A stretch of 8,765 bases of DNA from a virus (Duplodnaviria > Heunggongvirae > Uroviricota > Caudoviricetes), in the IMG/VR virus record IMGVR_UViG_2778261170_000011, positions 1-8,765 of that record; one strand, given 5' to 3'. Position numbers and translations under genes: made by a program. Of the stretch, positions 7,000 to 8,765 are shown piece by piece (position 1 is the stretch's first letter; every line of letters begins with the position of its first letter). The notes under the pieces were generated by a model. That model ran no database searches, was not told the origin of the DNA, and saw nothing but the letters and a program-made list of their open reading frames with translations.

Positions 7000-8187
7000 T
7001 CAGCTGATACTGATGCCTGCGGTGGCTTTCTTCATCACCACAACCAGCAAATCGCTGATACTTGCTGTGGGATACCAGTTATTTACCAGCCATGCTGACA
7101 CCGAAAACTCCAGTGTCATGTGACCGTGACCGGCAGGCATATCAATAACGCCACTGTAAATCAGCGTATTATCCAGCGCGGTACGGTTATAAATTTCAGC
7201 ACCGTTTTTCCGCACTATCAGACGGCATGAGGAGTAAATATCAGTATGCTCTCTCTCATGTTTAGCGCCGCTGAATGCCACCGCCGGAATAACAATCTGC
7301 CGGTCAAACGGCTGATCGTCATAAATCCTGACGGTAATGGTCCCTGATGGCCACCGTTCCGGTGCACGGGAGTCCCGGGGGAAAGCTTTGCCCACTGTTT
7401 TAACGAGATCGCCTTCAATCTGGTTCGCGGACAGTTTTCCCAGAACCCGGCAGTTCTCGTTAATCGTGACGTTGTTGAGCGTCCCGGAGTTCGCATTCAC
7501 GTTACCGCTGATATCGGCATTTTTCGCCGTCAGCCGCCCGTCCGGTGTCAGGGAAAATGCCGGAGGATTACCGCCGCTGGTAATGGTGGGAGCCGTCAGA
7601 TATTTCAGGAACACTTCGTTCATGAATATCTGATCGCCCTGACCAACAAACATCGGCTTTGTGTTGCCATTCGCAGGATTAACCATCGCAATCCTGTCCG
7701 CCGCCAGCAGCACCTGACTCTGCATGCCGTCAGGGGTGTTCTCAATACCGGCACCAATACCCGCGATATAAAGGCGTCCGTCCTGCATCTGCTGCAGCTT
7801 CACAGCCCACATGCTGTTCAGGTTATTATTTGTATCAACCTGAACCTTCTGTATCTGCTGAATTGCCGCACTCTGGTCTTCCAGTTTCTTATTGACGGTC
7901 TGCGTGATTTCATTGCTGACATCCGTAATGGACGTCCTGATTTCAGCCAGGTCAGGCGCAAGCTGACCGTTATCAATCTGCGTCCACAGCTCCTGAGCCA
8001 GATGGCTTTTCCCTATCTCGCCTTTGAAAAAATCCAGATAGCCGGATGCATCATCACTCGGCTGGCCAACAGCCTCCACAAATGCCGATTTGCCAACGGT
8101 GTTCACACTGCGAACGTAAAAATAATAATCATGGCCCGGTTTGATATTGATACTGGCGGCTATCCAGTACAGCCCCGTGCCAAGATA
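7000..8187 (-). pseudogene. J: C-terminal fragment (~395 codons) of tail-tip host-specificity protein J; 5' portion deleted
   Basis: The open frame reads ...[42 protein letters not shown]... through ...[41 protein letters not shown] (7002-7000), consistent with the lambda J C-terminus as I recall it. The track's M at 8106 is an internal GTG, not a real start. Upstream of ~8187 the frame runs into terminase-derived DNA with no J start or ribosome-binding site. Confidence 0.85.
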
Positions 8188-8765
8188 TCCCCTTTCGTTT
8201 TCATCCAGTCTTTGACAATCTGCACCCAGGTGGTGAACGGGCTGTACGCTGTCCAGATGTGAAAGGTCACACTGTCAGGTGGCTCAATCTCTTCACCGGA
8301 TGACGAAAACCAGAGAATGCCATCACGGGTCCAGATCCCGGTCTTTTCGCAGATATAACGGGCATCAGTAAAGTCCAGCTCCTGCTGGCGGATGACGCAG
8401 GCATTATGCTCGCAGAGATAAAACACGCTGGAGGGGTCATCCGGCGTCCATTTGAGGCCAAACGGCGTCTCTTTGTCGCCAAATTTAAGATACTGCTCCT
8501 CCCCGCAATGCGGGCAGGCAACATGAAAACGCATAAAATGCGGGGATTCACTGGCTGCACGCTCAATCTGACAGGTGCCTCTCACTTTTGGCGTGGAGCC
8601 ACGGATGGACTTTGGCCAGACCGAGCCTTCAATACGCTTGTCACCCAGGAACGTCGGAGAGCCTTCCTGTTCAATATCATCATCAAAAGCAGCAAGTTCA
8701 TCATAACCCGCCACATCCACCGACTTTTCACGGTAGTTTTTTGCCGCTTTACCGCCCAGGCACCA
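8160..8765 (-). pseudogene. A: internal fragment of terminase large subunit (lambda gpA-like); N-terminal part beyond the window, C-terminal part deleted
   Basis: Minus-strand translation from the window edge reads [193 protein letters not shown], matching lambda gpA (roughly residues 170-360) as I recall it. After GD (codon 8189-8187) the sequence diverges to [12 protein letters not shown] (TAG 8162-8160) instead of TGKRK.... The track's M at 8720 is an internal GTG (Val). Confidence 0.9.

Follow-up and report, generated by a model that had tools for sequence, protein, structure and literature searches.

An out-of-frame junction between the terminase gene A and the tail-tip gene J in a defective lambdoid prophage of Escherichia coli

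In the stretch of DNA analysed here (the window, 8,765 nt), the gene for the terminase large subunit, A, breaks off in mid-gene and is followed directly by the middle of the tail-tip gene J. This arrangement raises the question of whether the two genes are neighbors in a real genome and, if they are, what brought them together and what the element can still do. A preliminary description of the window had read the locus as an out-of-frame deletion in a lambda-like prophage and had concluded that the element is non-inducible. Here we place the junction on alignments with intact relatives, compare it with other deletions of the same kind, and weigh the explanations for its origin.

Breakpoints of the junction and the gene fragments on either side

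The A/J junction lies at window positions 8186/8187 on the minus strand, where both genes are broken in mid-gene and joined out of frame. The window comprises the following features, given with the evidence on which each assignment rests.

8188..8765, minus strand: 5' fragment of the terminase large-subunit gene A (A nt 469–1046); lambda match of 580/580 including the TA, GpA_ATPase domain
8186..8187, minus strand: deletion junction, TA dinucleotide; three-way alignment and BLAST end-points
8160..8185, minus strand: read-through of the A frame into J sequence (with A8186, ATC TTG ... encodes ILARGCTG); translation
7000..8187, minus strand: 3' fragment of the tail-tip gene J, codons 765–1159 plus stop; 97.4% identity to the 28Eco12 J, Pfam
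6332..6932, minus strand: lom pseudogene, 166 aa; alignment with three intact lom genes
3892..6267, minus strand: stf-like side tail fibre gene, 791 aa as called, apparently intact; phage_tail_N domain, length as in 23CRST032
3611..3892, minus strand: 93-aa ORF between the two fibre genes; kept in intact relatives
2561..3601, minus strand: second tail fibre gene, 346 aa, with a C-terminal Peptidase_S74 chaperone domain; Pfam and the annotation of relatives
2225..2518, minus strand: 97-aa hypothetical protein (maximal ORF 102 aa, to 2533); ORF calls and relatives
1..1743, plus strand: cargo gene for a KAP-family P-loop NTPase, 580 aa; Pfam KAP_NTPase

On the upstream side of the junction the sequence is that of the terminase. 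Window positions 8186–8765 are identical to lambda 1179–1758 (A nt 469–1048) at all 580 of 580 positions, and they share 99.8% identity with the terminase of the intact 23CRST032 prophage. Homology to J sets in at window position 8187. In E. coli 28Eco12 and in the phages PhiR46_1 and PhiR55_1 this position corresponds to J nt 2293, where codon 765 begins; lambda J also reads YLGT at residue 765. From there to its first letter (1–8187) the window is 97.4% identical to the 28Eco12 region that carries an intact J. In translation of the minus strand, the A frame passes through GAT at 8189–8187, continues through the eight read-through codons (ILARGCTG), and ends at a TAG stop at 8162–8160. The J frame, one base off that of A, opens with TAT at 8187–8185 and runs for 395 codons to its stop at 7000–7002. 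These results agree with the preliminary description, according to which terminase homology stops at codon 8189–8187, J homology begins there in a different frame, and the A frame closes eight codons later at 8160. The out-of-frame deletion from the middle of A to the middle of J that it proposed is now defined to the nucleotide.

A three-way alignment of the window with an intact A and an intact J places the junction at GGGGA[TA]TCTTGG:

A parent: ...AAAGGGGATA / CGGGAAAAC
J parent: ...CAGCCCGC / TATCTTGGCACGG
Window: ...AAAGGGGATATCTTGGCACGG

The dinucleotide TA at 8187–8186 is the sole overlap of both parents (A nt 1047–1048 = J nt 2293–2294), and A nt 1046–1048 passes directly into J nt 2293–2295 with zero inserted sequence. 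By our own calculation an overlap of at least 2 nt is expected by chance in ~16% of random joins, and the TA therefore provides no evidence of a homology-guided event. A repeat search and inspection of the ORFs detected no IS element, terminal repeat, or transposase ORF at the junction, in keeping with the earlier observation that neither an IS element nor an obvious repeat is visible there, and an Rfam search returned no relevant family at or around it. Repeat-mediated deletions are recognized by tens of shared bases at both end-points; here the two end-points share TA only.

Both breaks cut through protein domains. Intact gpA consists of a GpA_ATPase domain (residues 47–285) and a GpA_nuclease domain (residues 322–600), and the break at residue 349 falls inside the latter, removing nearly the whole nuclease domain together with the C-terminus. 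The truncated gene (A') retains a match to GpA_ATPase (E 5e-23), and its frame comprises 349 native and 8 foreign codons. A functional gpA combines the ATPase with an endonuclease and a portal-binding C-terminal end, a combination that A' does not possess. In L006, the one contig that reaches further upstream, the A fragment carries an extra 1-nt deletion near A nt 149 (~codon 50); this lesion lies outside the window and is present in one assembly.

The break in J, at residue 765, lies within Ig_J_second (716–818). FNIII-A, Phage-tail_3, and Ig_J are absent from the remaining fragment (J'), in which codons 765–1159 are left and Phage_Tail_Tip (E 1e-32) and Ig_GpJ_C (E 5e-38) are still recognized by Pfam. 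J' spans the C-terminal tip and receptor-binding domains of J and is start-less: the first in-frame start is a GTG at 8106, from which the longest ORF (368 aa) would be read, and no evident ribosome-binding site precedes this GTG. A functional J has its full length (~1130–1160 aa), its own start, and the N-terminal hub domains, none of which J' offers. With both breaks ignoring domain boundaries and the two frames out of register, the junction yields two pseudogene fragments and no chimeric protein.

The parent prophage and the missing segment

The closest guide to the parent is an apparently intact lambdoid prophage of ~47 kb in E. coli strain 23CRST032, located between espL1 and thrS (NZ_AP045802.1, ~2,193,000–2,240,650). 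Its left part contains the integrase, exo/bet/gam, the repressor region, O/P, ren, Q, an HTH gene, holin/lysozyme/Rz, and iss. The late genes follow in the order Nu1, A, W, B, C, D, E, FI, FII, Z, U, V, G, T, H, M, L, K, I, J, lom, and stf, and the right end consists of a 93-aa ORF, the 346-aa S74-chaperone fibre, a 97-aa ORF, and the KAP NTPase. These genes are flanked by two copies of a 28-bp direct repeat, ATTTGTGTACCAAATTGTGTACCAATTT: one immediately precedes the integrase, and the other separates the KAP NTPase gene from thrS. The second of these copies, the attR core, occupies the same place between KAP and thrS in the contigs L006 to L010, outside the window, and every junction contig that reaches the thrS side keeps it. 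On the other side, the junction contigs end before attL, the integrase, and the immunity region.

The junction element appears to occupy the espL1/thrS site of the 23CRST032 prophage and shares with it the thrS-side copy of the 28-bp att core, gene order, and cargo. Identity is 99.8–99.9% on the Nu1/A side (99.9% for Nu1 and A' of L006) and 97% for the HTH and lysis genes of L006. On the J-distal side it is ~97% over window positions 1–7813, from KAP through most of J', and ~99% from attR to thrS. The two elements differ in that the 23CRST032 prophage keeps the full 16 kb between A nt 1048 and J nt 2292, has an intact lom, carries a J C-terminal variant that is 27 codons shorter, and has iss/bor upstream of Nu1, where the junction element has DUF1398/DUF3950 genes. 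The J segment adjoining the junction is closer to the 28Eco12 variant of J than to the 23CRST032 variant, indicating that no single sequenced genome is the exact parent.

Gene order in the junction element (Nu1-A'...J'-lom'-stf-fibre-cargo) is collinear with that of lambda, PhiR46_1, and the 23CRST032 prophage. This lambda-type order, together with the perfect terminase match, bears out the suggestion that the parent resembled lambda. The distance between the two breakpoints is ~16.04 kb in the coordinates of 23CRST032, PhiR46_1 (21602 to 37642), and lambda (1758 to 17797), close to the ~15 kb previously estimated from the lambda map. Missing are the 3' 45% of A (codons 350–641), seventeen whole genes from W through I (W, B, C/Nu3, D, E, FI, FII, Z, U, V, G, T, H, M, L, K, and I), and J codons 1–764. 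The remainder of A, all head genes, and most tail genes are thus gone, as had been proposed, and virion-essential functions have been lost with them.

The genes distal to J' differ in condition. The stf gene, the 93-aa ORF, the 346-aa fibre gene, the 97-aa ORF, and the KAP NTPase gene match the lengths of their intact counterparts. The KAP NTPase, which matches the PADLOC candidate family PDC-S49 (E 7e-16), is encoded by the last gene ahead of the attR core and thrS and so lies inside the att boundaries. In contrast, lom has gained one base in a G run (C7 on the plus strand, 6448–6454; G6 or G4 in relatives), which cuts the product from 199 to 166 aa, and the 166-aa call recurs in all junction-bearing loci. 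The preliminary description had lom, stf, and the cargo genes retained. This stands for stf and the KAP NTPase, which are intact, but has to be amended for lom, which is frameshifted.

Occurrence of the junction and of comparable deletions

The window matches one end of contig NMDV01000006.1 (GCA_002537815.1) over all 8,765 nt with 100% identity, and its position 8765 is the contig end. A join made by the assembler, with terminase and J lying apart in the real genome, would be in keeping with this end being 579 nt beyond the junction and with most other contigs breaking 115–550 nt upstream of the junction. However, a 60-mer that spans the junction has perfect matches at six loci, which come from different samples and three pipelines (NCBI isolate assemblies, one ENA assembly, and one Logan assembly). 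The J' ORF of 368 aa is present on 31 contigs, and its entry from E. coli HVH 152 (ESP39133.1) is labelled a hypothetical protein. Moreover, L006 carries on for 4.5 kb past the window end, to ~5.1 kb from the junction, and includes there the remainder of A', Nu1, DUF3950 and DUF1398 genes, Rz, lysozyme, holin, and an HTH gene. A 2-nt overlap gives an assembler no basis for joining the two sides. An assembly chimera, which the preliminary description had named as one outcome that would overturn its reading, is for practical purposes excluded by the recurrence of the 60-mer in six independent assemblies, and we regard it as almost certainly not the explanation.

The fact that contigs break just upstream of the junction indicates that the terminase side is repeated sequence in those genomes. 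The terminase region is present in a median of three copies per E. coli genome, and together these observations suggest that the cells in question may carry another, near-identical terminase. Host sequence on the thrS side of the element is 99.3% identical to that of other E. coli. In a 563-kb scaffold (L005), the junction region is flanked by N runs and adds no context.

None of 5,426 complete E. coli genomes contained the junction as a contiguous match; the places with at least 80% coverage among them were exclusively two-piece matches to other junctions. The junction was likewise not found among 50,697 phage records or in IMG/VR scans. As judged from these collections, the allele is rare and appears to be confined to a minor E. 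coli lineage that includes HVH 152.

The other junctions were mapped on the PhiR46_1 reference, which gave four further independent deletions that run from A into the tail region.

SW070917, ybhB-bioA site: A to nt 1167; then J nt 2132, then J nt 2923 to a tfa fragment
CT02, Qin: A nt 1–1617; then 84 nt of C/Nu3, J nt 2406 onwards, and lom
RM10410 type, ybhB-bioA site: A to nt 1049; then a tail-fibre gene
K-12, DLP12: A nt 1–308; then tfaD

Overlaps at the measurable junctions amount to 2–5 nt. The SW070917 junction (A nt 1167/J nt 2132) was considered as an ancestor from which a second deletion of 280 bp could have produced the present one. This proposal is unsupported and was rejected: the SW070917 element is another prophage, at the ybhB-bioA site, whose J is truncated further into a tfa fragment. 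The RM10410-type remnant (ybhB-bioA, att-lambda), with 11 complete genomes and 3 IMG/VR contigs carrying it, resembles the junction element in its break in A, 1–3 nt away, and in keeping Nu1 and the lysis genes. It differs in its partner, a tail-fibre gene rather than J, and in its chromosomal site, and is an independent event.

The cryptic prophages of K-12 (DLP12, Qin, and Rac) offer a broader comparison. Like the junction element, they have a lambda-type late region from which the morphogenesis block has been deleted, leaving a 5' stump of A beside Nu1 (nohD/nohA) that runs straight into a distal gene for a tail or fibre protein. Unlike them, the junction element occupies espL1/thrS rather than the argU or ydfJ sites, breaks at A nt 1047/J nt 2293, carries the KAP NTPase cargo, and represents a minor lineage absent from the complete genomes surveyed.

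Origin of the junction and state of the element

Taken with the gene order and the att core, the alignments make it very probable that the window is the right end of a lambda-like prophage at espL1/yniD-thrS in which an internal deletion of ~16.04 kb joined A to J. Such a deletion would have linked A nt 1046–1048 to J nt 2293–2295 within one prophage, either in a single event or as the last of several nested events, between which one junction cannot discriminate. The likely cause is illegitimate recombination, of the end-joining or slippage type, rather than homologous, site-specific, or IS-mediated recombination. We infer this solely because the ends share TA alone and no IS element or repeat accompanies them. 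At the junction this would have left A' and J' as pseudogene fragments, while the fibre genes beyond J' and the KAP NTPase cargo gene remained intact.

An A gene and a J gene could also have been brought together from two lambdoid prophages of the same chromosome, by a chromosomal deletion or inversion. The several terminase copies per genome would provide the material for such an exchange, the 28Eco12 prophage at the same thrS site has a non-lambda head module, and the bor/ybcV region upstream in L006 differs from that of 23CRST032. However, on either side of the junction the genes follow one another and point in the same directions as in the intact 23CRST032 prophage at this site, and the identities to that prophage are high throughout, in HTH, lysis genes, Nu1, and A (97–99.9%), over window positions 1–7813, and from attR to thrS. 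An internal deletion, moreover, takes one event and leaves the chromosome architecture unchanged, and we consider an inter-prophage origin very unlikely. A different proposal is that the remnant, with its lysis cassette, Nu1/A', J', fibres, and KAP NTPase, was kept as useful to the host and that the end-points reflect selection. Among lambdoid prophages of E. coli, at least five deletions of independent origin begin in A and end in J or a fibre gene, all of them retaining Nu1 and distal fibre or cargo genes; one of the others breaks A within 1–3 nt of the present site; and the cargo gene matches a candidate defence family. Set against this, the breakpoints cut domains and the fusion is out of frame, lom is frameshifted, A' in L006 has a second frameshift, and the allele is rare, with none of the complete genomes carrying it. 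Clustering of breakpoints is also what the design of the search recovers, an effect of ascertainment. The frameshift in lom and the 1-nt deletion in A' point to neutral decay rather than a selected fusion, and domestication of the remnant appears highly improbable.

The nearness of the RM10410-type break led to a related question, namely whether A nt 1047–1049 is a recurrent deletion hotspot at which a DNA structure provokes loss of the morphogenesis block through replication stalling or nuclease cleavage. The two independent breaks in A, at different chromosomal sites and with different partners, are both located in the internal loop of an imperfect hairpin (fold of 100 nt of A DNA). This hairpin has z-scores of −2.47 on one strand and −2.42 on the other, with 1 and 5 of 200 shuffled sequences folding equally well; the breakpoint in J and the junction itself gave no fold signal (z −0.5 to +0.2). 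As a cause of the break, the modest hairpin in A is suggestive only. The search ranked matches by their reach across the junction, a ranking that favours near-coincident breaks of this kind. Three IMG/VR pattern scans for non-intact continuations after GGGGAT, GGGGATA, and GGGGATAC recovered the RM10410 junction three times and one intact terminase (L016) that carries a Thr-to-Met change, and they revealed no third partner at the position of the break in A. A hotspot is therefore not established. We think it very unlikely, and the near-coincidence of the two breaks is probably due to chance. If real, a hotspot would repeatedly start the loss of the morphogenesis block in lambdoid prophages.

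The internal deletion has clear consequences for virion production. In lambda, A, W through I, and J serve to build heads and tails and to cut and package DNA. Given the known roles of these genes, the element would have lost head building, tail building, and its own DNA cutting and packaging, and the deletion abolishes self-assembly of virions. The deletion does not, by contrast, entail the non-inducibility that the preliminary description had deduced. L006, the one contig that extends far enough, retains holin, lysozyme, Rz, and Nu1 as well as the attR core, and the early region lies off-contig. Defective lambdoid prophages of E. coli O157 Sakai have morphogenetic or terminase defects, yet they can excise, replicate, and be packaged in trans with the help of co-resident phages (Asadulghani et al., 2009; PMC2669165). 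They are similar to the junction element in being lambdoid, in having deleted or disrupted morphogenetic and packaging genes, and, apparently, in residing beside near-identical relatives. In contrast to the Sakai prophages, whose excision, replication, and packaging in trans were shown by experiment, the junction element is known from its sequence. Loss of structural genes alone thus does not show that a prophage is non-inducible.

These results bear directly on annotation. The appropriate label for A' and J' is that of pseudogene fragments left by one deletion, and for lom that of a pseudogene with a frameshift; the 368-aa "hypothetical protein" ESP39133.1 is a start-less fragment of J. The junction also provides a clean clonal marker of an E. 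coli sub-lineage. More broadly, it represents one more defective lambdoid prophage that keeps Nu1, a stump of A, and distal fibre and cargo genes. The A/J scar is an ordinary step in lambdoid prophage decay, with little significance past annotation. Together with the four other A-to-tail junctions, it adds a small but well-resolved example of the way in which the morphogenesis block disappears from lambdoid prophages.

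Mosaic make-up and the terminase end of the element

On sequence comparison, the prophage element is a mosaic: its terminase part (window 8186-8765) contrasts with J', the 3' fragment of tail-tip gene J (7000-8187), and with lom. The terminase fragment at 8186-8765 is identical to phage lambda at 580/580 positions, whereas J' and lom share only 76-83% identity with lambda. The nearest relative of J' is the 1159-aa J variant found in E. coli 28Eco12 and phage PhiR55_1.

Window position 8765 is the end of contig NMDV01000006.1, and the short-read assemblies of three other junction-bearing contigs (L008-L010) likewise stop 115-550 nt upstream of the junction. 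Such contig ends are as expected if the same genomes carry a near-identical second lambda-type terminase gene. The 5' part of A', the terminase gene A fragment, is reached by one contig only, L006. In this single assembly, a 1-nt deletion lies outside the window at L006 4259-4260 (A nt ~149; GGGCGCTGGG to GGGCCTGGG), a candidate lesion that would shift the A' frame near codon 50.

lom, the cargo gene and the attachment repeat

Two further genes of the element were annotated in the window:

6332-6932, minus strand: lom, frameshifted, with a homopolymer run at 6448-6454
1-1743, plus strand: cargo gene encoding a 580-aa KAP-family P-loop NTPase

The run in lom is G7 in the window versus G6 or G4 in intact relatives, corresponding to one extra base. 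Because this added base shifts the frame, the lom product is cut to 166 aa, compared with 199 aa in intact relatives. The 166-aa call was found in all junction-bearing loci (6/6).

The KAP NTPase gene lies within the prophage att boundaries as the final gene ahead of attR, the thrS-side att core, and thrS. Its product matched the candidate defence family PDC-S49 in PADLOC (E 7e-16), and the gene is kept in the intact prophages of E. coli 23CRST032 and 28Eco12. In 23CRST032, where the prophage sits between espL1 and thrS, each of its ends is marked by a copy of a 28-bp direct repeat, ATTTGTGTACCAAATTGTGTACCAATTT, at L014 19366 and L015 7000; within the repeat, TTGTGTACCAA occurs twice as an 11-nt tandem duplication. 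This repeat is presumably the att core of the 23CRST032 prophage integrase.

Deletion breaks in other prophages

At ybhB-bioA, the E. coli RM10410 prophage has terminase A broken at nt 1049 and fused to a tail-fibre gene (L002 8033-8064), 1-3 nt away from the window break (window 8182-8190). This RM10410-type junction, carried by 11 complete genomes as well as 3 IMG/VR contigs, arose by a deletion independent of that in the window. Both breaks fall in the loop of an imperfect gene A hairpin (z about -2.4 to -2.5), and their near-coincidence could reflect either chance or a hotspot.

Scars were also mapped in two other E. coli prophages:

L001 6178-6969: SW070917 scar, A up to nt 1167 fused to J nt 2132-2923, which is followed by a tfa fragment and IS1
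L004 8883-8966: CT02 Qin scar, A up to nt 1617 fused to a C/Nu3 relic of 84 nt, which is followed by J from nt 2406

Both scars are multi-step, and these prophages show that nested deletions have hit the same region elsewhere.
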